This document shows, one piece after another, positions 182 to 63,634 of a stretch of DNA of 64,000 bases. Within the stretch, counting starts at the first letter, position 1. Each line of letters starts with the position of its first letter. Made by a program: the position numbers and the translations under genes. The stretch lies in the IMG/VR virus record IMGVR_UViG_3300034073_002480, positions 1 to 64,000 of that record; one strand, 5' to 3'. The notes beneath the pieces were generated by a model, which did no database searches, was not told where the DNA came from, and was given only the letters and a program-made list of their open reading frames with translations. The stretch comes from a virus.

Positions 182-544
182 TACAACAGACCATAGAAAG
201 AAAGGGTAGTGTTATACCATGCAACCTACCTTTTTCTATGTTCGGCGGTTTTATATACCGTGATCTCTATAGCTGTTTTTAGCGTCTCTAGCTGTTATCT
301 ATCTTTGTATGTATGTTTCCCTATAAACACAACTAACTAAGCTTACAGCGCTATTTTTTAACGTCTGTATGCTGTTGTTTTTGTATGTATGTGTAAACCA
401 CATACAGCTAGTTAGCAAGGTTTACAGCTATTTGGTGAGGTGTTTTTACTTCACCAAAAAAAGATCCTAGCTTGTGACTAGGCTATATTTTGCGTTATAG
501 CGGGAGATATATGTTTTTAGGTATGTTTGTATAGATAGGCAATA

Positions 545-577
545 AAAAAAGCGCTTAGATTAAGTTCTAAGCGCTTA
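545..577 (-). terminator. Intrinsic terminator for leftward genes
   Basis: Minus strand reads AAGCGCTTAG-loop-CTAAGCGCTT followed by a T-run. Confidence 0.7.
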
Positions 578-599
578 TAGGTGAATTGTGCGATGATTG

Positions 600-782
600 T
601 TAATCATCTATTGGGAGAATACGATCATACCTTAATTCTGATTTATCATATTCCCATATCATGCTATTCATATTGATAATTTCAGAATAGCTAAACCAGT
701 TGAATTGTTGCGCCCAAAACATGAGCATTTTAATACAATCTATCTCAAATTGTGTAAGTGTGAATAGTGTTAATAATGGCAT
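600..782 (-). CDS. Small hypothetical protein
   Basis: 60-aa ORF lying between ORF 870-1697 and the terminator. Confidence 0.35.
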   Translation of the reverse strand: MPLLTLFTLTQFEIDCIKMLMFWAQQFNWFSYSEIINMNSMIWEYDKSELRYDRILPIDD

Positions 783-869
783 AGGTTAATAGTTAGGATA
801 GATTTACTGAAGGAAAAACATAGAAAGAAACAACCTAGGGATCATTCTTTCTATGTTGGTTAGTTGCTG

Positions 870-1697
870 TTATTGTGCTTTCTTACCCTTGCTAGGTGCT
901 ATACCAGTTATAAGCATACGCAAGTTAGCCAGTATAGTCGTTGCATTTTTGCTGCCGCCCAGATGAGTATCAAGTCTAGATGCAATACGAAGCAATGTAA
1001 GACCATTGCAGTCAGTCTTAACAGAATGAATAACCATACCCAATAACTCACGGTTTACAAAACCATACGCAGCAGTTGGATATTCATTCTTGACAGCGAT
1101 AATTGCATCAATACCTGCCGCAGTGTCAAGAGAGCAGATAGGATTTTTAGACACCAAGTCAACAGCGCTACCCTGCAATAACAGTTTAGGACTAGCTGTA
1201 AATGCTGCGCGATATACTGACAAAATCTTGATCCTGACATTTTCGGGTAACTCATGAAGATCTAACTCTTCGTTAGTTTCAAACATTGCAGGATCAAAAG
1301 ACTTCACAAAACTGATACAGCGCTGCAAATTCTGATACTTCCGCAAAATATCATTATGCGAAAGTTTAGCTGCAACTGCCTTGATCTCATCATTGTGAAT
1401 TTTACCTGACTGCTTGTACTCATTCATTGCTTCCTTAAATTGTTTCATACCTGCCGCAGTATCGGGATAAGCGTCTACATCAGGAGCATTAATGGGAGCA
1501 GGAAGATCAAAACTCGCAACAAAATCACATTTACGAAATAGATCTTGTGTGCCTGCAAGTTTACACTGATTATCCTTCGCAACAATAAACTGCTTCAAAT
1601 TTAGATCGGCAGGCATATCTGCAAGCAAACCATATACAGGAAGCGCGATCATAGAGTCAATAGCAGCAGATACATCAGAAAGATTAATAGAGTTCAT
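870..1697 (-). CDS. Hypothetical protein (275 aa)
   Basis: Long ORF with an AAGGA Shine-Dalgarno upstream; no motif recognised. Confidence 0.8.
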   Translation of the reverse strand: MNSINLSDVSAAIDSMIALPVYGLLADMPADLNLKQFIVAKDNQCKLAGTQDLFRKCDFVASFDLPAPINAPDVDAYPDTAAGMKQFKEAMNEYKQSGKIHNDEIKAVAAKLSHNDILRKYQNLQRCISFVKSFDPAMFETNEELDLHELPENVRIKILSVYRAAFTASPKLLLQGSAVDLVSKNPICSLDTAAGIDAIIAVKNEYPTAAYGFVNRELLGMVIHSVKTDCNGLTLLRIASRLDTHLGGSKNATTILANLRMLITGIAPSKGKKAQ

Positions 1698-2043
1698 TGA
1701 TTTTGTCCTTTAGGTAAATTTCGTTTTTGGCTTAGCCTATAGCTTTGCCACCTATAGAATAGCAAACTATGACTACCTTAAACCATCGCTTAACATTACT
1801 TATTATAAATACACAAAAGTTAACTCGGATTTATGCCATAAAATACACAGACGGATCTCTTGTGAGGATAGGTGAGTCTAAGTGAGTTTCGTATAAATTT
1901 CATGTGAGGCTATGCCCTATCGTGGACTGTAACATATAACCAACCACCAATAACTACAGCCTCGCACCTTATCTTTTATAAAAAAGCCAACATCTGTGTT
2001 TTCTATGTGATACTATAAAGATATACCCACAAACAATATAACT

Positions 2044-2211
2044 ATGTCAGATACAGGTAGACAAAAAAAGCTACCTTCACAGAAACATACCAATGTTATA
2101 AGAATAAACTTAAACACTGCTCAACTTACCAAACTAGACCGTATCTGTGCCTCCGAAGGGTTATCTTACACAGAGTACTTTAGATCTTTTTTAGCCAAAG
2201 ACAAACGATGA
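2044..2211 (+). CDS. Small ribbon-helix-helix-like DNA-binding protein (55 aa, not in the ORF track)
   Basis: MSDTGRQKKLPSQKHTNVIRINLNTAQLTKLDRICASEGLSYTEYFRSFLAKDKR shows a beta-strand then helix-helix pattern; ATGA overlap with terS. Confidence 0.65.
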   Translation: MSDTGRQKKLPSQKHTNVIRINLNTAQLTKLDRICASEGLSYTEYFRSFLAKDKR

Positions 2212-2924
2212 CACCAGACCCATTAAACGAAGAACTATCTGCTATACAGCAAGAAGCTGAAGACAATGATCTTATAGTTGACCTCAGCGACACAACATTA
2301 CCCGTGCCGCGCAAACAACGCCGCCAGATACCTTATGAACAGATTCGTGCGCGTTATATCATAGGCAAACGTGACCTACAAGAAGACGGTACAGTACGCA
2401 TAACCGACTACACACTGGCGGAACTTGCAGGGTTGTACAACGTGTATCTACCATCTTTGCAACTCCGTAGTGGTAAGGAAAAATGGTCACTCCAACGAGC
2501 CGCCTACAAAGCACGGTTACAAGAAAACGCTGAAAACACAGCCCTCAACATATATCTGCATGAAGGTGCTATCGCGGACACCCAAGCTATGATAGCCACC
2601 AACAAACTCAACAAGATATACAAGATGGCTTTGACCAAGTATGATTCTGTCATCGAAGCTTATGACTCGGACAGAGCTTTAGATGATGATGAGAAAATCG
2701 ACATACGCGAACTCAAAGACCTCCTTGCCATCGGCAAAGACTTACACACTCTATCACAACAAGTTGTTAAATCACGTACAGCCTTGGTGGAGCGCGATAT
2801 GGTCAAAGACCTACAACAGTATAAGAACCGTGCTTTGCCACAGAAGAAAGCTTTGGATACCAAACAAATCACAGACAAACTCGCACACTTACAAAACATA
2901 CTCGCACCAGCACAACCACATTAA
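2208..2924 (+). CDS. terS: Putative terminase small subunit
   Basis: N-terminal HTH-like segment (YEQIRARYIIG...TLAELAGLYNV...KEKWSLQR), helical body, position upstream of terL. Confidence 0.6.
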   Translation: MTPDPLNEELSAIQQEAEDNDLIVDLSDTTLPVPRKQRRQIPYEQIRARYIIGKRDLQEDGTVRITDYTLAELAGLYNVYLPSLQLRSGKEKWSLQRAAYKARLQENAENTALNIYLHEGAIADTQAMIATNKLNKIYKMALTKYDSVIEAYDSDRALDDDEKIDIRELKDLLAIGKDLHTLSQQVVKSRTALVERDMVKDLQQYKNRALPQKKALDTKQITDKLAHLQNILAPAQPH

Positions 2925-2934: not shown

Positions 2935-3720
2935 ATGACTGACAAAGCGCCAAGCAATGGGAAAATAATTGAAGTACAACCACGAGACTCATTACCTAGT
3001 TTTGAAGTCTTCGGCGTACAGTTTAATATACCCACATCATCACTCAACACAGTCCTACTTTTTCTTCTATGTGCGGTGAAAATCAAAGAGATACTAGAAT
3101 CTGGTACTAAAGGTTTGCAACTCGCACTGACAGCACTTGACCGTCTCGACATAACGATTATCGATGCTATGGACGACCTTGCTGTGGAAATCCGTGAAAT
3201 AACCAATGCTGACCGTGTTGTATTCTTTCTGTTACACAATGGTATAGCTAATCCTGTGTATCATTGGAAAAGACTGTCAGCCATGTCAGAGTCTGTTAGA
3301 ATCGGTGTAAAACCTATACTACGGGATATGCGTGACGTTCTTGTACCATCGATCCTCACAGAGAAAGACTACCAACTATACAAAGACTTACAGTGCCATA
3401 AGCAGTTTGTACATTTGCATCTTGAAAACCCTTTGCTGTCACGCAAGCACAAGAACTTCATGTTGGACACAGGTGTGTTCGGTCATTATGTACGTGTATT
3501 GGTCGATGAAGAAACCAACAAACCCTATGGAGCAGTATTAATCCAATACACAACACGAGAACAATGTGAAATCCATGACGGCACAGGATGGTCACAATAT
3601 ACTTATGACACCTTAGAAACAAAACTGGACATACTGTACAACCTATTTGCTAAACGTACTAATACACCAAGATTCCAGTTTATAGCTCGATGCAAAGAGT
3701 TCATGCGCTTTGGTCGTTAA
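2935..3720 (+). CDS. Membrane-anchored GAF-like protein, possible T4-T-type holin
   Basis: One hydrophobic segment (LNTVLLFLLCAV) then a GAF-like EIREITNADRVVFFLLHNG; start placed at ATG 2935, after the terS stop. Confidence 0.5.
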   Translation: MTDKAPSNGKIIEVQPRDSLPSFEVFGVQFNIPTSSLNTVLLFLLCAVKIKEILESGTKGLQLALTALDRLDITIIDAMDDLAVEIREITNADRVVFFLLHNGIANPVYHWKRLSAMSESVRIGVKPILRDMRDVLVPSILTEKDYQLYKDLQCHKQFVHLHLENPLLSRKHKNFMLDTGVFGHYVRVLVDEETNKPYGAVLIQYTTREQCEIHDGTGWSQYTYDTLETKLDILYNLFAKRTNTPRFQFIARCKEFMRFGR

Positions 3721-3755
3721 TAGCCACTTTCTTTCTATGGTCTTCATGTACAACT

Positions 3756-5402
3756 ATGGCAAACAATAATATCTCAGCAAGAGCTTTACAAGATTACGAA
3801 GCTTTGATGCAAGAACGTATCTATGAAGCTGCGGAGAAGTCCCTATATGTTTTTATCAAGGCTGCTTGGCAGTACATTAATGGTGAAGAACTTATTGATA
3901 ACTGGCACGTTGCTTGTTTAGCCGAACATATGCAGGAGTTTTTTAAAAAGAAAGACTGTGCATTAGGCAATCGGATGTTAATCAACATATGCCCTAGATC
4001 TGGCAAAACCATGAACACTACTGTGATGGGTACAGCATGGCAGTGGATACAAGATCCTAACTATCGTATTATACACACAACACACACAGAACGGCTCTAC
4101 GTAAGGAACATAGCCTCTATACGCCAGTTATTGTCATCCCCTTGGTACAAAGATAGATGGTGCAATCCTGCATTAACAAACCACTACAGATTCTCACTGT
4201 CACAATCACAAAACACAAAAACTTGGTTACAACTTGAACAAGGTGGTGAATTTTACGGTACATCTCCAGGTTCTAGTAACGTATACGGTGCTGGTGGTGA
4301 TTTACTCTCTATTGATGACCCTACAGATGGTTCGTCTGCACATCAACCTATTGTCCTCGAACGTGCTAATCGTTTTTACTCACAAACATTGAAAACTCGT
4401 CTTAACAACAAAAAGACTGGTAAAATCATGGTTGTGCAACAAAGACTAGCTCAGAACGATCTATCAGGTTGGATACTAGAGCATGAGCGTGAAGATTATT
4501 TCCACCTTAATATCCCGATGCTGTATGACTCTCGTAGAACATTTGTGTCACCTATTGGTTTCAATGACCATAGAAGAAAAGACGGTGAGTCATTAGACCC
4601 ATTGCGTTTCCCACCAGAGTTTATTGATACAGAAAAGAAGAATTTCAGTTATTTTCAAACTCAGTACCAACAAGATCCAGTACCTGAAGGTGGCAACTTA
4701 ATACAACTTGATTGGTTACAATATTACAATAGACACGACTTCGATTCCACTTTCTCTTCTACGGTATCTCAATGGCTTTCAGTCTGGGACTTATCATTCG
4801 ATGGTGGTACTGATAATGATTACACTGTAGGTTTGGTGTTAGCATATACAACTGACGGCAAATTTGTAGTGTATGACCTCTGGCGAGAAAAAGCAACATT
4901 CACTAGACAATTGCAAATGATGCGTGAACTGGTAAACAAACACCCTCAAGTATGCTTGCACCTAGTAGAGAACCTTGCTAACGGTACAGCGTTGATAAAT
5001 ACCCTACAACGTGAAATCAACGGTTTAACACCTATTCTCCCACGTACATACGGTCATTCCAAGTCTATGCGTTTACAGGCTTGTGTACCAGCTATCATGG
5101 AAGGTCGATTGTGGATACCACGTGACACCACCTATAGTGTGGATGTTGTCAAGGAACTTGTAGGCTTTCCTTTAGCAACTAATGATGACATTGTGGACTG
5201 TATTGCTTATGCTATTAATCATTGTTTAGTAACACAAGATATAGGTGTGACATACACAGGGTTGCACAAGATGGTAGACACACCTTTAAATGCTGAAGAA
5301 AAAGCCAGAGCATTATCTACCCTAGCTTATGATTATCAAAAAGAGCGTGTTGATGTATTAGGTTCCACTAGCAACAGTAATATCCGATCCATCTTCTATT
5401 GA
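3756..5402 (+). CDS. terL: Terminase large subunit
   Basis: Walker A (INICPRSGKT), Walker B (LLSIDDP), VVQQR coupling motif, YQQDP, RNase H-like nuclease (WDLS...DYTV...NDDIVD). Confidence 0.95.
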   Translation: MANNNISARALQDYEALMQERIYEAAEKSLYVFIKAAWQYINGEELIDNWHVACLAEHMQEFFKKKDCALGNRMLINICPRSGKTMNTTVMGTAWQWIQDPNYRIIHTTHTERLYVRNIASIRQLLSSPWYKDRWCNPALTNHYRFSLSQSQNTKTWLQLEQGGEFYGTSPGSSNVYGAGGDLLSIDDPTDGSSAHQPIVLERANRFYSQTLKTRLNNKKTGKIMVVQQRLAQNDLSGWILEHEREDYFHLNIPMLYDSRRTFVSPIGFNDHRRKDGESLDPLRFPPEFIDTEKKNFSYFQTQYQQDPVPEGGNLIQLDWLQYYNRHDFDSTFSSTVSQWLSVWDLSFDGGTDNDYTVGLVLAYTTDGKFVVYDLWREKATFTRQLQMMRELVNKHPQVCLHLVENLANGTALINTLQREINGLTPILPRTYGHSKSMRLQACVPAIMEGRLWIPRDTTYSVDVVKELVGFPLATNDDIVDCIAYAINHCLVTQDIGVTYTGLHKMVDTPLNAEEKARALSTLAYDYQKERVDVLGSTSNSNIRSIFY

Positions 5403-6369: not shown

Positions 6370-6687
6370 CTATGCAGCTTCAACAACAGGTAATTGCTTT
6401 ACAGCTTTCTTTAAAGAAGGCACGGCGCGAAAGCGCACACGGTGAGTAGCAGGTACAGCAATAGCATCCCCAGTCTTGAGATTACGAGCAGTAGTTGCCT
6501 TGAAAAGCCGAGGTGTGAGTAATCCAACACCGTCGATACGAACCTCATCACCATTGCTAAGCTCATTAGCCATAACGTTGGAATAAGAACGTACAACAGC
6601 ATTGATTTTATCCAATGACATAGCAATTCCGAAATCAGCTTCAAGTGCTGCTTGTGTGGTACGGATAATCTGTTTCTTAGTAGACAT
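6370..6687 (-). CDS. hup: HU/IHF-family DNA-binding protein
   Basis: GDEVRIDGVG, ARNLKTGDAIAVPA, VRFRAVPSLKKAV. Confidence 0.9.
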   Translation of the reverse strand: MSTKKQIIRTTQAALEADFGIAMSLDKINAVVRSYSNVMANELSNGDEVRIDGVGLLTPRLFKATTARNLKTGDAIAVPATHRVRFRAVPSLKKAVKQLPVVEAA

Positions 6688-7926: not shown

Positions 7927-10371
7927 ATGATAACAAATATTCTTGACCAGTCGTTTGCTGACTTTGCAAAGCAAGCCAAGACCGTACTATCGTCAGATGA
8001 AGAAAAAGCTGTTGTGTCCCCACAAAGACAACGGTTGGACACACTCGCTTCATATTATACTAACCGTGTATCAGCCAATGAAACACAACTAATAACCAAG
8101 TACGCCGATTCTCTAGTCTCTGGTGGTCAACCACGATTACCTGATCCTCGTTTGTATATGCGTAGGGATTTGTTGGGTTTGGTGCAAGACTCCTATGCAT
8201 TAGGTATTGCTGATGCTTTGCAAGATTTGGAGGATGTCCAGTTCTTTGCTTTGCAAACTGATGCGGATTTTGCTGTATCACCTGATGATAAATTACAACG
8301 TGACATCGCAAAGCTGCAACGTGATATCCAAGCCTCACAGCAAATCGTAAGACAAGCCAAGACACTCAACCAATACACAAATACACTACAAAGCTTACAA
8401 CAACAAGCTCAAGCCCTAAACAACACGCAAGCTGCACAAACATTAAACCAGCTATCAGAACAGCTTGATGCAATCAAAACTAATAACACATTACGTTCTG
8501 TAGGTAAACTAGTCAATCAACAAATACAAAAAGGGCAATCTCAACAATCACAAGCACAAGCTACAGTAAAGCAACAGATAGCTGCCCAAGGATCACCAAA
8601 CACACAAGATTACTTAGTCAAAAGAGCCATAGAAGAGAAGTTACAGTACTTGGAGAACAGACGTGATTCTCTGGCATCAACACCCCCTGTAGTATTAGAC
8701 GAGGACAAGGATTTCTTTAGGTGGTATGCTGACAAGAGATTAGTACCTATTGCTAACAGATATCAGCAGGGTTTGGTGGACAAGAATAATGAAGCTAAAG
8801 AGATTGTAACAAAATATACGGAAGAAATCAACAAAGGAACAACAACACAAGCAGCTAAAGGTACAGCAACAGATAAGATTGTCCGTAAAATGCTAAACAT
8901 AGAAGATAAAGTGATAGCTAAAGGACGACCTATCAAAAGAGTGCAACGTGTTGTAGCTACAGAACTTGCTATTGCTTACAACATAGGTAGGCTCAAAGCA
9001 TACCTCAAAGCTGGCATACAATATGTAACTATATCAACATCTAATTATAGCCCTGAAGTTTGCGACTATTGTGAAACAACAGCAAAACAGACAGAAGGTG
9101 AGCCTATTAAAATATCATCTTTATTAAAAAATGCTTACAAAAATAAAGGTTTCAACAAAGATATAAAACCTATAATATCAGATTTACGATATTTACCTAA
9201 TCACCCTCATTGTTATTGTTTTTACAAACCACATCCTAAACAAGATCCAGAAGACAAACAGGAGTCAGCAGGTGTTTATGCCGACCCTAATAGTTGGAAG
9301 TTCATTCTTGGTGCGGGGTTAGGTGTGTCTTTAGCTTTTCTTGCTTTTGCTTTGACAACAGGACGTAAAATATCTGTACCACGTACCGTGCCATCAGCTT
9401 TACCTGTTCGTGTACCAAAAGCTATACCACAGGTAGTCAGTGATATACAACCTCAATCTATACCTGTACGTGCTATTCCACAATCTGATTTAGTAAGTCT
9501 ACCTGTACTACGGCAATATATAAAAAACTTATCATCTGAACAACAACAAGATTTTGCTGACATCATAACCTCTTCTTCTATGTCTCAACAAGAGAAAATA
9601 GCTGCTCTGTATACAGAAGCTGCTGCAAAAGGTTTAAACATAGAAGAAAAAATTGGAGATATAGTTGATACGATAGCACAACAAATACCACTAGTAAAAG
9701 GTGTACAACGGCAATTTTTACAAGATCAGGTTGCCAAAATAGATAATACTTTTGCAATAAAAAGCAAACTTTTGCTAAACAATATTGACAAACAAGAACA
9801 AAGGTTGTTGTCTATTATCCCTGATAATCCTGATAAAGTCACTATCACATCTATCCGCAACGTCCTGCGTGAAACTGATCGCAAATACATACAAAATCAA
9901 CTTGCATCTATACAAAAAGTAGAGGATTTGTTGTTACAATCATACAAAAAAACACTAGGAAAAACAAAACCTAACGATATAGAGTATCGTAATGAACTAT
10001 CGGAAAACATCAATAAGTTACAAGTTTACCGACAAAATTTGCTAGAACAGCAGCAAAGAGTGAAAAGCATCCAACAACAGTTAGCGGGATTAAAACCCCT
10101 CAACAAAACACAATTACGTGCGCTGGTATCTGATCGTATAGCTCGTGTTGAAGCTGCGTTGGACAGGGATACACAAGAGGCTTCACGGTTGTATAATTCG
10201 TTATTGGAATTTCTTGTTAGTCTACCACCAGAAGAAGCTAACCGTTATGCTGCGGTTGTACGTCGTTTGCGTGACAAAATAGAACCCACACAGTACAAAC
10301 GATATACAGGTGGATTGGTTGCTTTTTCTTCTATGAATCCAAAGTATACATCAACGAAAAGCTTCTTGTGA
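7927..10371 (+). CDS. Head morphogenesis protein (SPP1 gp7/Mu gpF-like) with TM and coiled-coil extensions
   Basis: RVVATELAIAYNIGRL, CDYC and LPNHPHCYC MuF signature; TM segment FILGAGLGVSLAFLAFAL. Confidence 0.8.
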   Translation: MITNILDQSFADFAKQAKTVLSSDEEKAVVSPQRQRLDTLASYYTNRVSANETQLITKYADSLVSGGQPRLPDPRLYMRRDLLGLVQDSYALGIADALQDLEDVQFFALQTDADFAVSPDDKLQRDIAKLQRDIQASQQIVRQAKTLNQYTNTLQSLQQQAQALNNTQAAQTLNQLSEQLDAIKTNNTLRSVGKLVNQQIQKGQSQQSQAQATVKQQIAAQGSPNTQDYLVKRAIEEKLQYLENRRDSLASTPPVVLDEDKDFFRWYADKRLVPIANRYQQGLVDKNNEAKEIVTKYTEEINKGTTTQAAKGTATDKIVRKMLNIEDKVIAKGRPIKRVQRVVATELAIAYNIGRLKAYLKAGIQYVTISTSNYSPEVCDYCETTAKQTEGEPIKISSLLKNAYKNKGFNKDIKPIISDLRYLPNHPHCYCFYKPHPKQDPEDKQESAGVYADPNSWKFILGAGLGVSLAFLAFALTTGRKISVPRTVPSALPVRVPKAIPQVVSDIQPQSIPVRAIPQSDLVSLPVLRQYIKNLSSEQQQDFADIITSSSMSQQEKIAALYTEAAAKGLNIEEKIGDIVDTIAQQIPLVKGVQRQFLQDQVAKIDNTFAIKSKLLLNNIDKQEQRLLSIIPDNPDKVTITSIRNVLRETDRKYIQNQLASIQKVEDLLLQSYKKTLGKTKPNDIEYRNELSENINKLQVYRQNLLEQQQRVKSIQQQLAGLKPLNKTQLRALVSDRIARVEAALDRDTQEASRLYNSLLEFLVSLPPEEANRYAAVVRRLRDKIEPTQYKRYTGGLVAFSSMNPKYTSTKSFL

Positions 10372-20466: not shown

Positions 20467-20521
20467 GCTCGATTAACATCCCCTACCTTCTTTTCTATGT
20501 TATACTGAAAATAAAAGAGCT

Positions 20522-52691: not shown

Positions 52692-53191
52692 AGTTTTATT
52701 TTATGTTTGTCAACCAAGTAGGTCAAACCGATTGCCACTGCATCAGCAGCATGATTATGTGTTTTGGTAAAGACCGTAGAAGGAAAAACTAAACGGACTT
52801 TATCAATTATATCTTGCTTATCAGCAGTGGATTTACCTGTGATTACAAGTTTAATGTGTTTTGGTGTATAGGATTGTTCCGTAAGACCTTTCTTGTAAGC
52901 GATCAACCGTGTGATTCCAAGTGCCTGTTGAATACCGACCCCAACCCCAGCCGCATTCCTACCCTTAAATACTACAGATTCATAAGCGAATACTGAGGGT
53001 TTATGTGTGTCTATATACTGTTTCAAAAACTGGGCTAAACTATCTAACTGCTCAGGAATTGACACACCTTTACTGACAAAATGAGTTGCATCTAAACATT
53101 GCATTTCTTGTGTTTCAGTGTTGTAGTCTATAATAGCTAGACCCGTATTGCGACTTCCAATATCCTCAGATAAAACTCGTATAATAGACAC
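52688..53191 (-). CDS. ruvC: Holliday junction resolvase RuvC
   Basis: DIGSRNTGLA, AYESVVF, YTPKHIKLVITGKSTADK, HAADAVAIG. Confidence 0.92.
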   Translation of the reverse strand: MSIIRVLSEDIGSRNTGLAIIDYNTETQEMQCLDATHFVSKGVSIPEQLDSLAQFLKQYIDTHKPSVFAYESVVFKGRNAAGVGVGIQQALGITRLIAYKKGLTEQSYTPKHIKLVITGKSTADKQDIIDKVRLVFPSTVFTKTHNHAADAVAIGLTYLVDKHKIKL

Positions 53192-53687: not shown

Positions 53688-54401
53688 TTAAACCGTAGAA
53701 AGAAAAAGGAGCAAATCTTGTAAAGGTTGTTTGTTATTGTAGTCACTGTTGTCAAGCACATAGTCAGCTTGGATACGACCATAATGCATATCCCAAACCA
53801 GCTTCTCACTTTGATGGATAATACCATTTTCTTTTTTGTGTTGATTAATAGCTGCATTACGATTATCAATATAAATAATAATACCACCGCTAGTTTTTAT
53901 AAACTCAAATTCATTCTGAAAACGTAAATCTGAAATAATGTGTAGTGTGTCAGGATCATTGTACTCACGAGCAAAAGCATCAACCCAAATATTATCACCT
54001 AATAACTGACGACAGATATCAGTCCCAATAATCTTTTGTGCTTCACGAGCAGAAATAAGCTTACCATTACCATCCAACCCGTCTACACACCCATACCATA
54101 AAAACTGTTGCTTTTCCTTCCATTCGCGGTTTTGAAACAACGAAAGATCATCAACACCTAAAATAGCACCAACAACTTCCGTCAACTTCGTTGCAAACTT
54201 TACAACCTCACATTTTCTTTCTAAGGTCTTCGCTAAATAATTAGCTACATAATCTTTACCTCCACCAATGTGGCTACACAATCCTACAAATCTCAGTTTA
54301 CTTTGTTTTTGCTGAGAGCGTGTTAATTCATCAATCTGTGTTTGTGATAATTCCAAACATCCTCGTGCAACAGAATCGATTATTGCTTTATTTCTTACCA
54401 T
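53688..54401 (-). CDS. Deoxynucleoside monophosphate kinase
   Basis: GGGKDYVA, FATKL, REAQKIIGTDICR, ISDLRFQNE, HQSE. Confidence 0.88.
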   Translation of the reverse strand: MVRNKAIIDSVARGCLELSQTQIDELTRSQQKQSKLRFVGLCSHIGGGKDYVANYLAKTLERKCEVVKFATKLTEVVGAILGVDDLSLFQNREWKEKQQFLWYGCVDGLDGNGKLISAREAQKIIGTDICRQLLGDNIWVDAFAREYNDPDTLHIISDLRFQNEFEFIKTSGGIIIYIDNRNAAINQHKKENGIIHQSEKLVWDMHYGRIQADYVLDNSDYNNKQPLQDLLLFLSTV

Positions 54402-55570: not shown

Positions 55571-56636
55571 ATTCTTTTATAACACCAAATCTAGGTTTAC
55601 CAGCAGGTGTAAAACCATTATACTTCACAGTTGTTGGTTTACCAATGTACAGATGTTTGTTTGCTAAAATATCATGACATACAGACTGTGTATTGGCAAC
55701 CGAAGCCTCAAATTCCACACCATCTTCTGTAACTAACAATGCTTTCTTAGCTAAACCTGCCCAATTACCTTGACCTTCTTGTATGTCCAGTAACAAAAAT
55801 TCATCTGTGTTATCAACCTTGTATTTGAGGAGATTATTTGACCTTTTATTTTCATAGTAAGACTCAGTACGAACTATCACACCTTCATACCCTTGCTCTA
55901 AATACAAACCCAAAAAATCATCTACTTGTTGATGATCTAAAGCCTGAACTGTAGGTACAACTACTACATAGTCATAATCAACTAAACACTCCAAGAACTC
56001 TAGTCTTTCACTGTACACCACAGGTAAAAAACAGTCGTAACCATAGAAAAGAATTGTGTTTTGTGATTTGGTTATGTCCTCTGGTGTCGGTTTTAATTTC
56101 TTGACGACAGAACAGATAGTATTGAAATCATCTTTGTATTGGTGGTTGTATAGTTCACCGTCCAACACAAGATCGGGGTTTGTTGCAAACACAGGTGATA
56201 ACGACTGCAAAATGTGTGGCACAGTGATGATCGGTTCACCTTTACGTGACCAAGCTCCTTGTTTATTGATTACACAACGAATTCCATCGTATTTAGGTTG
56301 TACAAAAACAGGATATTTAATCTTGTGTACACAGTCTTTGTAGTTTTTAGCTAGCATAGGTTTGAAATAACCACTAACACCTATCTCTTCTATGTTAGTC
56401 GTGTATCCACCTGCTGTCAGTTTTTTCTGGTAGTTCGCTGCAACCTCTTTTTGACATTGTTGTTCTGCTGTTGTTGCGTTGGCTCTACCTTGGTTTTTAG
56501 GTGTACAGATATGCCACTCAGACGTTGTAAGTTGTCCGTTGACCTGCCCCGTGATTGTCCTGTATCTATCACCTTGGATCTCTTGTGACCATTGTTGAAT
56601 AGCACCTGTACCTGTTTTCTTATATAAAATCTGCAT
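55554..56636 (-). CDS. lig: ATP-dependent DNA ligase
   Basis: QPKYDGIRC, LDGELY, GYEGVIVR, KRSNNLLKYK, GKPRF. Confidence 0.95.
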   Translation of the reverse strand: MQILYKKTGTGAIQQWSQEIQGDRYRTITGQVNGQLTTSEWHICTPKNQGRANATTAEQQCQKEVAANYQKKLTAGGYTTNIEEIGVSGYFKPMLAKNYKDCVHKIKYPVFVQPKYDGIRCVINKQGAWSRKGEPIITVPHILQSLSPVFATNPDLVLDGELYNHQYKDDFNTICSVVKKLKPTPEDITKSQNTILFYGYDCFLPVVYSERLEFLECLVDYDYVVVVPTVQALDHQQVDDFLGLYLEQGYEGVIVRTESYYENKRSNNLLKYKVDNTDEFLLLDIQEGQGNWAGLAKKALLVTEDGVEFEASVANTQSVCHDILANKHLYIGKPTTVKYNGFTPAGKPRFGVIKEFARVF

Positions 56637-57363
56637 TTCTTAATCTCTCTACAATAATGTCACAGTAACCACGATCTAATTCCACTCCGATAGCTCGTCT
56701 TTTATTTTGCTTAGCTGCAACTAAACTAGATCCTGAACCAGCGAAAGGATCAACCATTAACATATCGGCATTGGTATACGTTTTTATCATATACTCACAA
56801 AGCGCAACTGGTTTTTGTGTAGGATGCCATCTTTTGGTGTCATATTTGAAATCTAGAACCGACAAAGGATATCTATCACCTGTTGTATTCACTGTTTGAT
56901 TGACTTTAGATTTACCATATACACGATTCAACCGAGGATTATTAGTTGTTGTATAAGGTTTACCAGCAGTCATCTGTGGGTTATATACAGGTTGCTTGCC
57001 ATAGAAGATAAGTATGTTTTCATGGTTTTTCAAAGCCATACGTTTGCAATTCATATGACCTGTTCCTTGTGTTTTACGCCATATAAGTTCTTGTTTGAAC
57101 TCTTTGTAATTAGACGCTACAAGTTTGCTAGTGAAAGGTTGTGCGCCTGTAGCTATATAAACTGTATTAAGATGCCCTGTTTGATGCATTTGAAACCATA
57201 GAAGAGAAAGGTCTATGTGTTCAGAATCCCAGTCACAACGAACCATTTTGCCATAAGGCGCATCAAAAAAGTACATATCTACCTTTTCTTCTATGTTAGG
57301 TAGGATATCAAAGCAGTTGGCATTATACAACTGCACAAATTCATCTTGGTAGTATGGCTGCAT
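56620..57363 (-). CDS. DNA N4-C/N6-A methyltransferase (beta class)
   Basis: DAPY, HPTQKP, DPFAGSGS. Confidence 0.92.
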   Translation of the reverse strand: MQPYYQDEFVQLYNANCFDILPNIEEKVDMYFFDAPYGKMVRCDWDSEHIDLSLLWFQMHQTGHLNTVYIATGAQPFTSKLVASNYKEFKQELIWRKTQGTGHMNCKRMALKNHENILIFYGKQPVYNPQMTAGKPYTTTNNPRLNRVYGKSKVNQTVNTTGDRYPLSVLDFKYDTKRWHPTQKPVALCEYMIKTYTNADMLMVDPFAGSGSSLVAAKQNKRRAIGVELDRGYCDIIVERLRNADFI

Positions 57364-57805: not shown

Positions 57806-57864
57806 TTCTGTGCATAGCGATCAACGATGGTTGTTTATGTCGATTGCGACGTACCCATCTTTTT

Positions 57865-59269
57865 CTATGGTGTTTCATACAACCATCCTTTTTGAATACA
57901 AGCATCTGTATGTACGCCATGATCCATACCACTTACATCTAAACATTCACCATTAATCTCTATAGACAAGTATTTATCACCAAACCAAAATTCAGCTATA
58001 AGTTCATTGTTAAAACCTATATTTAACAAAGGTTCTGTATATAAACCTAATTCTTGCATAACAGCAAACAATCGTCTTACTTTATTCAGTGGAACCATAA
58101 ACCTCTCTTGCGACTACGGACATTAGATCAGCATCAGTTATTGCACACCAATAGTTTAAAATTGAGTCAGGTGTATCATTTTGTTTGTTGATACCCCAAT
58201 CTTCAGTTAAAAGTTTTTGAAATAAATCTAGAATATATTGTTTGTTGCCACTCTCGTAGAGAAGATATAATAAAGCACAACAAAACTCTACATCTAGCAA
58301 ACAGTTATTTTCACCATGAGCATCAGTAACTGCTTCATAGAGATAATTAGTTATAATCTCTAAATACACCATTTCGTCTCTTTTTTGTAACGTAAAGGTT
58401 TACCAACACGAGCATATTCACCTGTACAACGATTTACAGAGTACCATTTCTGGTCTGTCAGTTGAACTTCATATAAAGCAGGTCTGTTAAATACAACAGT
58501 TCTTTTTACAGAACATACTAATAATTGACCATAGATATTAGCACAAATAAAAGCTGAAATCATTTATGTACTCGCAAACAAATAAATAAAATTGGTAGAC
58601 TCAAATCGAACCGTAGAAGAGAAGTAAGAATTTCTGTTCTCAATTTACACTTTAGTAGCCATGCTTGTACAGGTCGAAAAGCTATATCAAGTGTACCCCA
58701 TTCAAACCAAAATTGCCAATAATCATGGTACTCAGGTATACTGTGAAAAGCACCAATCTGTAGCGTCTTGGTTGCATCCGCGTATATTGTGATCTCATTA
58801 TTAGGTTGAAAATCAAAGTATGGCATATTCTATATGTAAAGTAGGTAGAATTATTTCCCAACAATAATGAGCAAACCAAGGTGTACAACTATTCATTGTA
58901 ACTGGTTGTTTTTGTATATCAAATGACCAATGCCAACTCGACAGAGGATAAAAATACAAAGCTATACCTACATGACCACATCTAATGTCTATGATATCAG
59001 GTAACGAAAGAAGTCTTGCTGGTGTAAGCGGTAATAAGTCACGGACTTCTAACAATGGTGAGAATTTAGTTTCCATATTTATGTGCCTCAGCCACTACGG
59101 TATCACCTTCAGTTATATAAAATAGATCATCGGGTAAAACCAAGTCTCTGACCACCAATAACTCTAGCTCTGCGTAGGTGCGTACTTGTTGTGGAAAATG
59201 CAACACCACAGAGTATAGTTCAACAAGTCGTTTGCCTAAAGCAGACAACCATTTCAGTTGTATTTTCAT
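57865..59269 (-). other. Run of six short overlapping hypothetical ORFs (57865-58098, 58082-58372, 58360-58563, 58560-58826, 58813-59076, 59066-59269)
   Basis: Head-to-tail overlapping ORFs on the same strand, typical of phage early regions. Confidence 0.6.
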
Positions 59270-59297: not shown

Positions 59298-60050
59298 TTA
59301 ACATAATCTTTGTCTCCCTATTTCACAATATTGTAACTCTTTTTCGATACACAACCACCGTCTATTTGTATTTTCACAAGCCACACCTGTTGTACATGAA
59401 CCAGCACAGTTATCTAGAACCAAAGCACCTTCTTGTGTGTACGTTTGTATAAGATAGGCACATAATTCTACAGGTTTTTGTGTTGGGTGTAGTTGATCTT
59501 GTCTGCGCCATTTTTGTTGGAAAAATTGCACAGTCGTAGGATATCTAACACCAGTATTTGTTGTCATAGCTTCTTTTTTATTGAAGCCTAATTTATGGTT
59601 ATTAATATCCGTGTCTGCGACTCTATGTGTTCTTGTGTAAGGGTCACCTTCTGTCATCTGTGGGTAATAAGGTAAACGACCTTCACCAAACACCAGTATG
59701 TTCTCATGTTTATTAACAGGTCTATATTGTGCTGTGAAAGCAGAGCCAGATTTACTTTTATGCCAAATCCATTCATATTTAAACATCTTTATATTAGATG
59801 CAACTAACATAGAAGAAAAAGGTTGTGAGCCAAATAAAACGATAGGGTGATTAGGTTTGATTACTCTTTTATATTGAGTCCACAGTTGCTCAAAAGGTAT
59901 TATAGAATCCCAAGCACATTTTGTAGTCCCATAAGGTAAATCGCACAGGATCAAATATACACTGTGATCAGGAATATCAGACATCAAATGCAAACAATCC
60001 CCATGCCATATTTGCCCTAGTGCCGTAGAAAAGAAAGGTGTTACTGACAT
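59298..60050 (-). CDS. Second DNA N4-C/N6-A methyltransferase (beta class)
   Basis: CDLPYG, HPTQKP, LDNCAGS. Confidence 0.92.
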   Translation of the reverse strand: MSVTPFFSTALGQIWHGDCLHLMSDIPDHSVYLILCDLPYGTTKCAWDSIIPFEQLWTQYKRVIKPNHPIVLFGSQPFSSMLVASNIKMFKYEWIWHKSKSGSAFTAQYRPVNKHENILVFGEGRLPYYPQMTEGDPYTRTHRVADTDINNHKLGFNKKEAMTTNTGVRYPTTVQFFQQKWRRQDQLHPTQKPVELCAYLIQTYTQEGALVLDNCAGSCTTGVACENTNRRWLCIEKELQYCEIGRQRLC

Positions 60051-60213: not shown

Positions 60214-60876
60214 TTATTCACCTATTTTAGTAAAATATTTTGTCCGACAAGTACCATACTGTGTAACTTTCCAACCTCTCTCTAACAAGAAACTTTCTAT
60301 TTCTTTCGAGGATAATCGCAAAGAAGGTAGTCTTTTTTTAATTTCAGGTATAGAGAATTTTCTAGTAAAAGAGTTAGCAATCTCGATAATAGCTGCATCA
60401 ACACTTATAGAAGCACTGTTTAAATCGGAATTTTCCCAATGATATGCTTTTAAAATAGCATTAGTAATAGTAGAGAATTTAATCTCAATAGCACCAAATA
60501 CAGGTAATAGTTTCTGTGTTAAAACGTTGTAAGCTTCTGTAATTGTTATGCGATCAGATTTACCATCAAAAGTTATTACCCAATTACAACTATCATCATC
60601 TCTTTCTACGTCAAAACCAGATAATACTTGAGGGTTATTTCTAAAGTATAAAGCTAGTTTAGAATCACTAAGTCTAATACCTTTTTCTTGTTGTGCAATA
60701 ATGTGATCCAACTTCATCTGTGCTTCAACTTGAAGTTGGATTAAAACAGGAAGCATTTCAGCAACTATTTTTTCAGTGTTTTCTCTACTACAGGCTGTTG
60801 CCTCAACTAAAACTTGAACTGCTAATTCTGTATCCACTGGCTTTCTGCTTAAAGCAGTTAGTAATTTATCACTCAT
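60214..60876 (-). CDS. Hypothetical protein with a possible C-terminal winged helix
   Basis: SIPEIKKRL...KEIESFLLERGWK. Confidence 0.6.
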   Translation of the reverse strand: MSDKLLTALSRKPVDTELAVQVLVEATACSRENTEKIVAEMLPVLIQLQVEAQMKLDHIIAQQEKGIRLSDSKLALYFRNNPQVLSGFDVERDDDSCNWVITFDGKSDRITITEAYNVLTQKLLPVFGAIEIKFSTITNAILKAYHWENSDLNSASISVDAAIIEIANSFTRKFSIPEIKKRLPSLRLSSKEIESFLLERGWKVTQYGTCRTKYFTKIGE

Positions 60877-61312
60877 CTAGTATACCTTAAAATCTGTATG
60901 ACTTTATTATATCATACTTTTTTAAAATAAAAATCATACAAAAAATAAAAAGTATGTTTTGATATAGCTTCTAGCCTCAAAAGTATGAAATACTTATCAT
61001 AATTAATATATGTATGAGCTTGAAAACGTTGCAGTAAGCCAATATTGAAAAAGTATGATGGCTGGCTTTTATCTATTCTCTCTGAAAAAAACAAACATCC
61101 GTCCGATAGGACATCCTTGCCACAACAAACATAGTCTCATCCTAGTGCATAGTCCTCTAACTCATCATAAAAAGCAAAAGTACGTTCCAAAACTTCTGTA
61201 CCATCAGTACAAACCCAAATCAAATACCACATACCCATAAACCGAAACTGTGTAAGATAGGAAACTGTGTTCATAAATGCAAAGATCATAGAAAGGGAAG
61301 ATGAAGACAACA

Positions 61313-61562: not shown

Positions 61563-61575
61563 CTCAATAACACTA

Positions 61576-62220
61576 CTATATTAATTCTTTTTCTATGTTG
61601 GTGTCAATATCATAGAAAAAACAATCGGTGTCGGCAGAAACCCATCTATCACCCATAACTTCAACACTTAGGAAAGAAGTATCAACTTTCCATTTAGATA
61701 GTTTTTGTATATCCTTGTTAGTCACCCAATTACTATCGCGCCACAATAACCTGTTGTTAGGCATCAGATACAGCCGACCATCATCTCCAGCAAGCAAGTG
61801 TCCACACTTATAATCTTGAGGCTCATCACTGTAGCTATTATCGAACCAATCAATAGTGAACATATAAGTTGCTTCGATATACGTCCTGTCTTTAAGTGTG
61901 ATTTGGCACTTATGATACTTCAGAAAATCATAGGTAACAACATGAGCATTTTCACTAAACATATCCCATAGCTGGTGATAGTGGAAAGGTATGTCAGGGG
62001 TAGTGGGTACTTTAGTATAGACTTCAGAAATAGGTACTCTACTTCTCATAGCGCCATTATCGGCAAGCACATGGAACGTCAGTATCTTGCCACTGATGGA
62101 CTGTACAGCAAAGCATATAACTTCATACCAGTTATCTTTGTCCTGTTCATTCTTTGTGAACCAAGATTCACGTACCAAAGCACGAAAATGAGGGATGTTA
62201 AAGTTCATACTAAAATTCAA
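61576..62220 (-). CDS. Conserved hypothetical phage protein
   Basis: 214 aa; QLWDMFS, YMFTIDW, MPNNRLLW. Confidence 0.75.
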   Translation of the reverse strand: MNFSMNFNIPHFRALVRESWFTKNEQDKDNWYEVICFAVQSISGKILTFHVLADNGAMRSRVPISEVYTKVPTTPDIPFHYHQLWDMFSENAHVVTYDFLKYHKCQITLKDRTYIEATYMFTIDWFDNSYSDEPQDYKCGHLLAGDDGRLYLMPNNRLLWRDSNWVTNKDIQKLSKWKVDTSFLSVEVMGDRWVSADTDCFFYDIDTNIEKELI

Positions 62221-62764
62221 AATCTTCTATATCTTGACTCAAACCAACAAAACCATAGTCAGGGAATTTCGCCCGTATTTTATCTATATAACCAACACCA
62301 AAGGCTTCTTGTACCTGTCTAATTGTTTTCTCTTCTACGGTCTTCAGAAATTCTGGTGTAAAATAAGTAGTTTGATTTTTATACCATATACGACAGATAG
62401 ATAAAGAAAAATGTGATAACACAGACTCAATGACAGGTTTACGCATTACCATAACTTGCACTTTTTGACTATCATAATAAAAAGTTAAGATCCACTTCAA
62501 TCTATCACTTTTTATATAATCATCATCGTCAATAAAGTCAGCACTGTGAGCTTGGCTATTATCAATTAAACCTAAGTCGTATAGTCTCCGATGTAATTCT
62601 GATAATGACATACTGCCTATATACATATAGAAGTCAAGATCGGTAGCTTCACGACCAAAATACCAGTCTCTAGGCGCACCACCAGCTAAAATACAGAAGG
62701 GGTCAATAGCTTCTAGTTTTGTCAGGAGAATATTAGCTATAAGTTGTTGTTTTTGGATGTCCAT
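62210..62764 (-). CDS. Minimal class II nucleotidyltransferase (CCA-adding/poly(A) polymerase head domain)
   Basis: LAGGAPRDW.....DLDFY; start placed at MDIQK (62764). Confidence 0.8.
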   Translation of the reverse strand: MDIQKQQLIANILLTKLEAIDPFCILAGGAPRDWYFGREATDLDFYMYIGSMSLSELHRRLYDLGLIDNSQAHSADFIDDDDYIKSDRLKWILTFYYDSQKVQVMVMRKPVIESVLSHFSLSICRIWYKNQTTYFTPEFLKTVEEKTIRQVQEAFGVGYIDKIRAKFPDYGFVGLSQDIEDFEF

Positions 62765-62765
62765 A

Positions 62766-62999
62766 TTAACCTGCATCATATAAACGATTACCAGCAAGAT
62801 CGAGAGATGGTTCAGCATCAGAAGATAGTGTAGAGTCCCATTTGAATTTTGGATGAAAATCACCATCACCATCAGCATATATAGCTACTTCTCTAGAAAT
62901 ACCTGCTCTGCCAAGTTTTTCCATATGTTTAAGCATCGATAGGAAATGTGGAATCCATCGGTTCTCCATTTCGATTTCAATTGTAAATTTAGTTACCAT
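62766..62999 (-). CDS. Hypothetical phage protein
   Basis: 77 aa; YADGDGDFHPKF. Confidence 0.7.
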   Translation of the reverse strand: MVTKFTIEIEMENRWIPHFLSMLKHMEKLGRAGISREVAIYADGDGDFHPKFKWDSTLSSDAEPSLDLAGNRLYDAG

Positions 63000-63008
63000 A
63001 GAAAAGAA

Positions 63009-63038
63009 AAAAGAGGCTAGTTGTTAGCTGCCTCTTTT
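63009..63038 (-). terminator. Intrinsic (possibly bidirectional) terminator after hsp20
   Basis: aaaagaggc...gcctctttt. Confidence 0.65.
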
Positions 63039-63058
63039 ATTGTATGTTGTGTGTTTGA

Positions 63059-63538
63059 TTATGCTAACGATTCGAGATCAGACAAACGTGCGCTGAGTGC
63101 CTGTTTTTTCGTTTGTACAGGGCGTTGCAAGGGAATTTCAACTACAAGTACACCTTGGGAATAATAGAGCTTTAGAGAGCCATCTAAAGCCACTTGTTGT
63201 GAGTACAAAATAAAATCCTGTTGATAAGGTTTAGCAGTCTCTTGTTTACTGTGATCTGGTACAGAATAGTTGCCCAAAGGTTCTTGTGTAGCTTTGATTG
63301 CAATTTTGTGAGCCGATGTTTTGTACTGGGATGTAGTTGGTTCTACAGTGACAGTGATAGAGTCTTTAATCAAACGTGGAATTTCAAAAGCAAGTGTGTA
63401 TCTAGCGCCATCACTGGATACCGAGCCTGTATATGTTAAAGCTTCTGTGAACGGTGCAAAAAATGCATCAAAAACATTAGGGATCGATGATGTGTTTTTG
63501 CGCTTGTCAGTAAAATCGGGGATTGATCCATAAATCAT
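63059..63538 (-). CDS. Small heat shock protein (Hsp20-like)
   Basis: VFDAFF N-terminal arm, YTLAFEIP, YSQGVLVVEIP. Confidence 0.75.
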   Translation of the reverse strand: MIYGSIPDFTDKRKNTSSIPNVFDAFFAPFTEALTYTGSVSSDGARYTLAFEIPRLIKDSITVTVEPTTSQYKTSAHKIAIKATQEPLGNYSVPDHSKQETAKPYQQDFILYSQQVALDGSLKLYYSQGVLVVEIPLQRPVQTKKQALSARLSDLESLA

Positions 63539-63634
63539 AGTTATAATGTTCGTAGTGTTACGTTCATCTTTTATTCTACGGTCTTGGTCTGTAATATGGG
63601 TACGGTTGTTGCGAAATAATTTGTAGTGTTTACT

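Follow-up and report, generated by a model that had tools for sequence, protein, structure and literature searches.

The stretch of DNA analysed here (the window) is the first 64 kb, positions 1 to 64,000, of a single 138,722-bp virus record, IMGVR_UViG_3300034073_002480, which is without N and is rated 100% complete by CheckV, and in which no terminal repeats were found. The record represents a freshwater cyanophage-like virus of ~139 kb (G000), through which an asymmetric 16-letter DNA word is iterated; the subject of this report is that word, of which each strand carries its own evenly spaced series, and what may read it. Simple calls based on open reading frames (ORFs) yield 207 genes that cover 91% of the genome, with ORFs directed along the plus strand from ~2 to 51 kb and along the minus strand from ~52 to 138 kb; the plus block contains TerL, a gene of the GIY-YIG/NUMOD3 type and a 2163-aa ORF (31655-38146). 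Among named phages, TerL is closest to those of Pam2 and PA-SR01, both of which infect Pseudanabaena (~31% identity; genomes of 143 and 137 kb), and megablast of 20 kb against named phages gave no match.

The initial annotation had estimated about 70 copies of an iterated motif in the window against about 3 expected, and the counts bear this out: CRTAGAARRR matches 68 times, 34 per strand, compared with 2.29 +/- 1.59 (maximum 9) in 100 dinucleotide-preserving shuffles, none of which reaches 68. The whole genome contains 157 strict copies, at 7-14 per 10 kb, and at k = 7-9 no k-mer family is more strongly over-represented than that of CRTAGAARRR. Iterated refinement with a position-weight matrix (PWM) gives the word AMCRTAGAARRRAARG, i.e. 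A-M-C-R-T-A-G-A-A-R-R-R-A-A-R-(G), of 16 letters and 19.9 bits; PWM scores are clearly bimodal and define 185 sites in the genome, 97 on the plus and 88 on the minus strand. The word is enriched 20- to 30-fold in this phage, and its 12-mer form occurs 126 times (0.91 per kb). The window has 85 PWM sites, 67 strict and 18 near-cognate (PWM sites that are not strict), and one strict copy that scores under the PWM threshold; they are listed here with coordinates, strand and PWM score in bits.

190..205 (+), motif copy, intergenic, left end, 24.9, strict
227..242 (-), motif copy, intergenic, 15.5, strict
817..832 (+), motif copy, intergenic, 14.4, strict
842..857 (-), motif copy, intergenic, 13.9, strict
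3058..3073 (-), motif copy, 22.0, strict
3726..3741 (-), motif copy, 22.2, strict
4567..4582 (+), motif copy in TerL, 24.2
4750..4765 (-), motif copy in TerL, 25.0, retained in L196
6732..6747 (-), motif copy, intergenic, 24.0, retained in L196
8626..8641 (+), motif copy, 20.6, retained in L196
8896..8911 (+), near-cognate copy, 19.3, retained in L196
9569..9584 (-), motif copy, 18.3
9637..9652 (+), motif copy, 20.5
10326..10335 (-), strict 10-mer copy under the PWM threshold
11262..11277 (-), motif copy, 22.7
11420..11435 (+), motif copy, 18.4
12461..12476 (-), motif copy, 23.2
13393..13408 (-), near-cognate copy, 14.4
13641..13656 (+), near-cognate copy, 13.7
14284..14299 (-), near-cognate copy, 13.5
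14445..14460 (+), near-cognate copy, 19.9
15292..15307 (+), motif copy, 18.4
16011..16026 (+), near-cognate copy, 16.0
16261..16276 (-), motif copy, 17.8
16888..16903 (-), near-cognate copy, 17.7
19157..19172 (+), motif copy, 20.1
20486..20501 (-), motif copy, intergenic, 22.9
21228..21243 (+), motif copy, 26.3
21719..21734 (-), motif copy, 18.4
21949..21964 (+), motif copy, 16.6
22152..22167 (-), motif copy, intergenic, 25.0
23596..23611 (-), motif copy, 20.2
23716..23731 (+), motif copy, 22.8
25074..25089 (+), near-cognate copy, 23.3
25202..25217 (-), motif copy, 19.4
27276..27291 (+), motif copy, 20.1
27514..27529 (-), near-cognate copy, 16.3
28444..28459 (-), motif copy, 19.2
28587..28602 (+), motif copy, 18.9
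30585..30600 (+), motif copy, 20.4
31047..31062 (-), motif copy, 17.5
32418..32433 (-), motif copy in the 2163-aa ORF, 19.0
33783..33798 (+), motif copy in the 2163-aa ORF, 24.9
35519..35534 (+), near-cognate copy, 14.3
35652..35667 (-), motif copy in the 2163-aa ORF, 18.0
36443..36458 (+), motif copy in the 2163-aa ORF, 21.1
37160..37175 (+), motif copy, 12.0
37761..37776 (-), motif copy, 16.0
39468..39483 (-), motif copy, 15.1
39878..39893 (+), motif copy, intergenic, 16.4
40291..40306 (-), motif copy, 23.4
41212..41227 (-), motif copy, 20.0
41304..41319 (+), motif copy, 19.8
42178..42193 (-), motif copy, 23.5
43913..43928 (+), motif copy, 22.6
44337..44352 (-), motif copy, 24.5
44966..44981 (-), near-cognate copy, 14.8
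45138..45153 (-), near-cognate copy, 21.5
46117..46132 (+), motif copy, 16.9
46417..46432 (+), motif copy, 23.8
47494..47509 (-), near-cognate copy, 14.6
47572..47587 (+), motif copy, 14.6
49009..49024 (+), motif copy, 19.5
49376..49391 (-), motif copy, 21.6
50434..50449 (+), near-cognate copy, 18.4
51875..51890 (+), near-cognate copy, 13.6
52074..52089 (-), motif copy, 17.8
52773..52788 (+), motif copy, 21.1
53692..53707 (+), motif copy, 19.5
54212..54227 (-), near-cognate copy, 20.7
56040..56055 (+), motif copy, 20.5
56381..56396 (-), motif copy, 21.2
56998..57013 (+), near-cognate copy, 16.0
57195..57210 (+), motif copy, 23.9
57282..57297 (-), motif copy, 23.2
57856..57871 (-), motif copy, 20.2
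58610..58625 (+), motif copy, 21.1
59806..59821 (+), motif copy, 24.6
60022..60037 (+), motif copy, 23.5
60597..60612 (-), motif copy, 12.2
61285..61300 (+), motif copy, 18.2
61584..61599 (-), motif copy, 17.6
61609..61624 (+), motif copy, 13.5
62326..62341 (-), motif copy, 22.6
62995..63010 (+), motif copy, intergenic, 20.5
63567..63582 (-), near-cognate copy, intergenic, 19.5

Within the word, T-A-G-A-A is invariant or nearly so, preceded by a specific A-M-C-R and followed by a run of purines only, in which GG is avoided; counted from the A of TAG, the purine run is 11 nt long at 45 sites, 10 at 40, 12 at 25 and 9 at 22. Sequence information is confined to about -2 to +13 and the flanks are without conservation, so that nothing larger is repeated and no element is present, which rules out a mobile element or longer repeat. 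Genes contain 158 of the 185 sites, 79 in sense and 79 in antisense orientation, and the other 27 are intergenic (14.6% of sites against 8.9% of the genome that is non-coding, a ~1.6-fold enrichment). The copies that had been reported in both orientations inside the tape measure gene are found at 32422(-), 33785(+), 35656(-) and 36445(+) of the 2163-aa ORF, and those reported as intergenic, at 6736, 20490, 22156 and 39880, do fall between ORF-based gene calls. The word prefers frames that avoid an in-frame TAG, and 63 of the 79 sense copies are in the frame xxC RTA GAA RRR AAR. Shuffling of synonymous codons within genes leaves 64.3 +/- 5.1 sites and shuffling of codons 32.7 +/- 2.0, compared with 185 observed (both null figures include the 27 intergenic sites, which stay unshuffled); a dipeptide-preserving Markov model of codon pairs, conservative because it was trained on the phage's own genes, predicts 7.9 +/- 2.8 sites inside genes, compared with 152. 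Thus the counts stay far above the expectation of codon- and dipeptide-preserving models, the level to which a mere artefact should have fallen; a codon or dipeptide artefact, already denied by the initial annotation, is ruled out by all three nulls, and the word is a real, selected signal at the level of DNA. A signal at the level of RNA is likewise ruled out: gene direction switches from plus to minus, and the two orientations of the word are equal everywhere.

The main new result concerns spacing: each strand carries its own evenly spaced series of the word, and the two series are mutually independent. The coefficient of variation (CV) of the gaps between copies on the same strand is 0.58 on the plus and 0.62 on the minus strand, compared with 0.99 +/- 0.10 under the null, and none of 2000 simulations is so low; the mean gaps are about 1.4 and 1.6 kb. 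Both short and long gaps are depleted, those under 300 bp numbering 4 on the plus strand (18 expected) and 7 on the minus strand (15 expected), and those over 4 kb numbering one on each strand (6.0 and 6.9 expected, respectively). Copies on opposite strands fit independence, with 23 pairs within 150 bp (18.5 +/- 3.8 expected) and 14 within 100 bp, some of them 14-36 bp apart and the closest at 14 bp. Since same-strand copies repel and opposite-strand copies are independent, orientation alternates above chance, switching at 118 of 184 steps along the genome (92 +/- 6.8 expected). The per-strand regularity is also present with the strict 10-mer and within the window alone. It recurs in a relative of 132 kb (G006), which has 123 sites, gap CVs of 0.62 and 0.60 and 82 switches in 122 steps. 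In agreement with the statement in the initial annotation that the motif is not strand-polarised, the cumulative walk of plus minus minus orientations has no large-scale polarity, remaining within +/-4 over 0-120 kb with a small plus excess in the last 15 kb. Such a pair of independent per-strand series suggests that whatever reads the word acts on a single strand at a time.

The word is private to the phage lineage. Across 401 Cyanobacteriota genomes, among which the host itself may be unsampled, the 12-mer reaches at most 59 copies per genome and is mostly as frequent as a reversed-pattern control; five further cyanobacterial genomes have the word below the control; and 13 genomes from the genus Pseudanabaena have 4-16 copies each of the Pam2 11-mer, ~0.002 per kb compared with 0.077 per kb in Pam2. 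These counts rule out a host-derived word of the DNA uptake sequence (DUS), highly iterated palindrome (HIP) or Chi type. The DUS of Neisseria and the uptake signal sequences (USS) of Pasteurellaceae are non-palindromic, occur at about one copy per kb in both orientations and lie inside genes in preferred frames. The phage word shares this density, asymmetry, use of both orientations and genic placement; however, uptake sequences saturate a bacterial chromosome, whereas this word belongs to the phage and is unenriched in the 401 cyanobacterial genomes.

The word is retained in related phages, a comparison that the initial annotation had singled out along with spacing. TerL as a single query found no relatives in IMG/VR; a TerL alignment search found six loci with 50-92% TerL identity (L196-L200 and L116, the last belonging to G006), all of which bear the same word at 1.2-1.5 per kb; the remaining 154 loci of those scans stay at or below 0.45 per kb. 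In the near relative L196, five of five sites are retained, with internal changes limited to A/G swaps at R positions; identity is 94% inside the word (75/80) compared with 79% outside it (3366/4240). The TerL site at 4567..4582 occupies the same alignment column in five of seven TerL genes, the other TerL sites having turned over, and of the 97 genic sites that can be mapped onto the whole of G006, 48 have a counterpart at the orthologous position on the same strand (a further 61 are unmappable; protein identity is roughly 45-80%).

More distant lineages have their own words at similar density. Marking with a slash the boundary before AG, where it was drawn, the variants are (G)GCAGAAAAR in Pam2 and PA-SR01 (GCAGAAAA, 60 copies in Pam2 compared with 10 expected), GTT/AGAAA in G007 (GTTAGAAA, 80 compared with 11 expected), GTA/AGAAAA in L429 (GTAAGAAAA) and AGAT/AGGY in L203 (AGATAGGY, 28 copies in 21 kb). 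Thus five lineages, counting this phage with its CRT/AGAA, have different words in which AG plus purines is common to all and the preceding bases vary. A 15-mer motif scan of IMG/VR returned 115 loci, all of them single chance matches, and the five of these records that were checked whole had no enrichment; among 125 other loci of at least 10 kb, the top 8-mers, where examined, were mostly local tandem repeats. At L203:1-21437, AGATAGGT is mostly antisense to genes and changes strand close to a divergent gene boundary at about 7 kb, as expected if replication starts at the boundary and runs with transcription.

The word may mark the places where a DnaG/T7-gp4-type primase encoded by the phage starts lagging-strand (Okazaki) primers, a reading that we favour tentatively and regard as a substantial possibility, short of probable; within it, we infer both the primase as reader and the start of primers at word sites. 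On the pyrimidine strand the site would be 5'-CYTTYYYTTCTAYGKT-3' (...TTCTAYGKT), where the primase zinc finger would recognise CTA plus a few 'cryptic' bases 3' of CTA; synthesis would begin opposite T, giving pppAG, and the pyrimidine run would then be copied into a purine primer of ~10-11 nt, AGAARRRAARG. Because either strand can be the lagging-strand template, each strand would need its own series at the distance of Okazaki fragments; the existence of a ~1.5-kb series on each strand implies a reader of single strands at the Okazaki scale, and so favours priming. Published Okazaki lengths, 1.5-2 kb in Escherichia coli and 1-6 kb in T7, match the mean per-strand gaps of ~1.4 and 1.6 kb, and the same source notes that most trinucleotide sites are ignored by primases and that a larger recognition sequence has been proposed (PMC8599759). 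According to PMC2978363, DnaG primases start at the middle base of d(CTA) or d(CTG), primers begin pppAG in vivo, and the third base is cryptic and set by zinc-finger residues. The pyrimidine strand of the word has CTA in this phage, its relatives, G007 and L203 and CTG in Pam2 and PA-SR01, the same two trinucleotides as in PMC2978363, which is a coincidence of sequence only; the lineage-specific bases lie on the cryptic side of CTA, and a pyrimidine run of primer length lies on the copied side.

The candidate reader lies beyond the window. Genes common to this phage, G006, G007 and Pam2 (tblastn, expect value (E) 1e-4) number 17, of which five are outside the packaging and structural block: those for a primase, a helicase, a deoxynucleoside monophosphate (dNMP) kinase, a Pyr_excise-like protein and a 74-aa helix-turn-helix (HTH) protein. 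The 296-aa primase gene (genome 84769-85659) adjoins an AAA_25 helicase gene (83127-84776). Its product has a weak match to phrog_47 'DNA primase' (E 3.8e-5) and no significant match in Pfam, and belongs to a small family (278 clusters at E 1e-3 or better), 50 members of which have invariant Cys 26, 29, 45 and 50, E186-G-E188 and D234-x-D236. An AlphaFold2 model with a predicted local distance difference test (pLDDT) score of 89 has as its best Foldseek matches, at probability 1.0, Twinkle, Aquifex DnaG (zinc-binding and RNA-polymerase domains), a T7 primase fragment and DnaG catalytic cores. The invariant residues and these structural matches identify the protein as a primase, composed of a zinc-binding and a TOPRIM catalytic domain. 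Identity to its counterparts is 72% in G006 and 27-33% in Pam2 and G007. A scan of IMG/VR with the primase family returned four loci, of which one, L429, was new and informative; the GC-rich distant primase loci L430 and L431 have no clear word in 15-20 kb.

The resemblance to priming sites of DnaG and T7 gp4 extends over several features: the word is asymmetric and would be read on one strand, its would-be template strand contains CTA (CTG in Pam2), on which a primer would begin pppAG, the bases that vary among lineages are those 3' of the start on the template, which would be cryptic, the purine run is of primer length, per-strand spacing is on the Okazaki scale, and a primase with a zinc finger and a TOPRIM domain is encoded. 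The T7 gp4 template site is 5'-GTC-3' plus flank, and that of DnaG is d(CTA) or d(CTG). By comparison the word here is long, ~16 nt and 20 bits, evenly spaced and embedded in genes to the detriment of protein sequence; it is known from sequence alone.

Several points weigh against priming. Known priming sites are 3-5 nt long, probabilistic and barely enriched, and we know of no characterised primase with anything like 20 bits of specificity. In T7 (L427), priming pentamers are at most 2-fold over-represented, with gap CVs of 0.92-1.00; GGGTC, among the five most over-represented 5-mers, occurs 55 times on the strand complementary to the record, compared with 26.9 expected. Barely enriched and unevenly spaced as these pentamers are, strong genome-wide selection for priming words is without experimental precedent. 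The orientation walk, within +/-4 over 0-120 kb, lacks the switch that an origin would produce. In G007 and Pam2 the per-strand series are only weakly regular (CV 0.84-0.95, p 0.05-0.39), possibly because their shorter words admit chance matches. The lineages share ancestry, so the CTA/CTG coincidence amounts to about one observation, and covariation of primase and word is inseparable from phylogeny; an alignment of primase zinc fingers from four lineages contains no residue tied to CTA as opposed to CTG. Finally, 74 of the 207 gene calls are without a match in the three relatives and many are without known function, and another reader among them is therefore possible.

A broader form of the priming proposal is rather doubtful: throughout a clade of freshwater cyanophage-like siphoviruses, Pam2 and PA-SR01 among them, Okazaki fragments would be started by the T7/Twinkle-like primase exclusively at a private word (up to 16 nt), written through genes as two independent evenly spaced series, one per strand. 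Were it true, the zinc finger of the primase would evolve together with the word, giving each lineage its own word, and priming would be self-specific, host DNA without the word not being primed. The choice of Okazaki start sites is a long-standing question, for which this phage, if its word is a priming signal, would offer a natural system with start sites spelled out in the genome, countable, conserved and overriding protein-coding preferences; replication signals would then shape phage coding sequences genome-wide, and lineage-specific words could help to assign phage contigs to replication modules. The priming idea would be directly testable in Pam2 and PA-SR01, both of which are cultured. 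Even if a primase is not the reader, strand-autonomous even spacing still demands a machine that reads strands. The literature that we found on phage nicks, over-representation of primase sites and cyanophage repeats gives no account of the word or of evenly spaced per-strand phage words, and term searches of the main texts, supplements aside, of PMC9837993 and PMC10286775 (the PA-SR01 paper and a Pseudanabaena cyanophage paper) gave nothing on repeated DNA motifs or primase.

Other genes in the window encode proteins that might act on the word:

6370..6687 (-), HU-family gene, PF00216 58.8 bits, 70% match in G006
18634-20217 (+), GIY-YIG/NUMOD3 homing-endonuclease-like gene, 527 aa, among head genes
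22174-22503, HNH protein, match in G006 only
56620..57363 (-), N6_N4 DNA methyltransferase, PF01555 92.6 bits, 76% match in G006
59298..60050 (-), second N6_N4 DNA methyltransferase, PF01555 94 bits

The two methyltransferases, the HNH protein and the GIY-YIG protein, together with the asymmetry and strand-specific distribution of the word, would suit a strand-specific nick or base-modification site, each copy being marked by a phage nickase or by an enzyme that modifies one strand (for example by hemi-methylation), but we consider this unlikely. PF01555, present in two copies in this phage and one in G006, is missing from G007, Pam2 and PA-SR01 despite their analogous words, so that the methyltransferase does not co-occur with the word across lineages, and a protein of 250 aa would leave little room for a 16-bp target; PF02086, PF00145, PF02384 and TGT/DpdA are absent from this phage. 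At E 1e-4, tblastn with the HNH protein gives nothing in G007 or Pam2; with the GIY-YIG protein it gives nothing in G007 and no more than partial matches in the other two, over 96 aa in G006 and 46 aa in Pam2. The 14 opposite-strand pairs within 100 bp would, if nicked on both strands, tend to break the duplex, and neither nicking nor modification explains even spacing at the Okazaki scale or a purine run of 10-11 nt. Phages with nicked genomes have few nicks, often on one strand. The consensus words at nicks of T5/BF23, tf and phiKMV-like phages resemble the word here in being asymmetric, phage-specific and acted on in one strand; the word differs in having 185 sites on both strands, some only 14-36 bp apart on opposite strands. 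Consensus words at nicks are known from phages (PMC3517423 and PMC11780129), and four localised nicks are reported for phage Andromeda.

A Chi-like role, in which a translocating helicase-nuclease or a recombination machine would recognise the word on single-stranded DNA and protect or recombine phage DNA from whichever end is attacked, would likewise predict an orientation-specific word and separate, evenly spaced per-strand series, and the phage encodes an exonuclease (phrog_298), an AAA_24 ATPase, a RuvC protein and an SNF2 helicase; nonetheless, such a role is improbable. A Chi read by the host should be enriched in the host, whereas the word is not enriched in the 401 Cyanobacteriota genomes and that of Pam2 is at ~0.002 per kb in the 13 Pseudanabaena-genus genomes compared with 0.077 in the phage. 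By tblastn at E 1e-4, the exonuclease is unmatched in Pam2, the RuvC protein in G007, and the SNF2 helicase and the AAA_24 ATPase in all three relatives; a scan, not exhaustive, of roughly 45 phage proteins revealed no RecBCD-like gene. The Chi sites of RecBCD and AddAB are 5-8 nt long, host-encoded and polarised with replication. Like them, the word is orientation-specific, over-represented and apparently read on one strand; unlike them, it is 16 nt long, without polarity and without enrichment in hosts. A Chi-like role also offers no reason for an AG start followed by a purine run of primer length.

The initial annotation had proposed a self-marking binding site for a phage protein, with HU, ribbon-helix-helix (RHH) proteins and basic cargo proteins as candidate binders. 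The selected, phage-private DNA signal implied by that idea stands, and its double-strand form, in which HU, an RHH protein, a virion cargo protein or another protein binds duplex sites for condensation, ejection, segregation or self-marking, has in its favour the conservation of the word, the HU-family gene, the ~1.6-fold enrichment of sites in non-coding DNA and a cluster of co-oriented look-alike units at the left end. Such a binder, however, should space its sites regardless of orientation, whereas same-strand copies repel and opposite-strand copies are independent down to 14-36 bp, and six or seven consecutive positions restricted to purines would fit a property of one strand better than base-specific contacts. 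HU is not favoured as the binder: its gene, matched in G006, has no tblastn match at E 1e-4 in G007 or Pam2, both of which have analogous words. Nor do the two independent per-strand series support RHH or cargo proteins as readers of duplex sites, and self-marking or condensation through double-strand binding is accordingly unlikely, with binding by some other protein a slim possibility. Cluster A mycobacteriophages have stoperators, asymmetric 13-bp words that recur through the genome as sites for a phage protein; there are about 20-35 in a genome, chiefly intergenic and oriented in the direction of transcription. The phage word is similarly asymmetric and iterated across a phage genome, but it has 185 sites, 85% of them inside genes and divided equally between sense and antisense (79 each).

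A functionless by-product of biased repair, gene conversion or a tiny mobile element spreading the word, which has a parallel in the ascription of iterated words such as HIP1 to repair bias (HIP1, also highly iterated and in a cyanobacterial setting, being a palindrome of the host chromosome in contrast to this asymmetric, phage-borne word), is very improbable, since a drive of this kind predicts neither even per-strand spacing nor a shortage of long gaps, 48 of the 97 sites that could be mapped are orthologous in a relative at roughly 45-80% protein identity, identity in L196 is 94% inside the word compared with 79% outside, and the flanks are without conservation and no element is present.

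Several further observations concern the genome ends and neighbouring genes. The left end has one additional feature:

5..181 (+), A-rich non-coding left end with several co-oriented word-like units that have TAA in place of TAG

Directly after it come two convergent true copies (190-242), and a further plus copy is located at genome 138687, 35 bp from the right end; the A-rich stretch may be an origin-like or genome-end region. On the minus strand at window 61371-61593 there is a match to the cyanobacterial transfer-messenger RNA (tmRNA) family RF01851 (35.5 bits, E 2.1e-9), under the 70-bit cut-off. The Pyr_excise-like protein (T4 endonuclease V family; phrog_624; genome 109215-109763, minus strand) is common to all four genomes compared; the pyrimidine run of the word would be a hotspot for ultraviolet (UV) dimers. 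TerL of this phage is without intein/LAGLIDADG-type domains, and a 6285-bp contig of a relative (P0002) encodes a 946-aa TerL, 88% identical, with such domains (PF14890, PF14528 and PF05203). In the Pam2 record, the coding sequence (CDS) right after TerL (L281:2064-3905) is labelled 'botulinum neurotoxin type B' by the depositors; its position in the head module suggests that the label is a mis-annotation.

The phage is present in other samples: 17 DNA runs contain at least half of the words sampled from a 10-kb stretch of it, four of which possibly represent the source sample, the other 13 coming from 11 studies of lakes and other fresh waters. Contigs from four examined runs cover the stretch, and one contig of run X10 omits 387 bases (36445-36833), the gap beginning exactly at a copy of the word. 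At an unrelated phage locus rich in GC (L264:1-21341), ACGCGCCA is dispersed 21 times, 7 and 14 per strand, compared with 0.9 expected, and this may be another iterated phage word.

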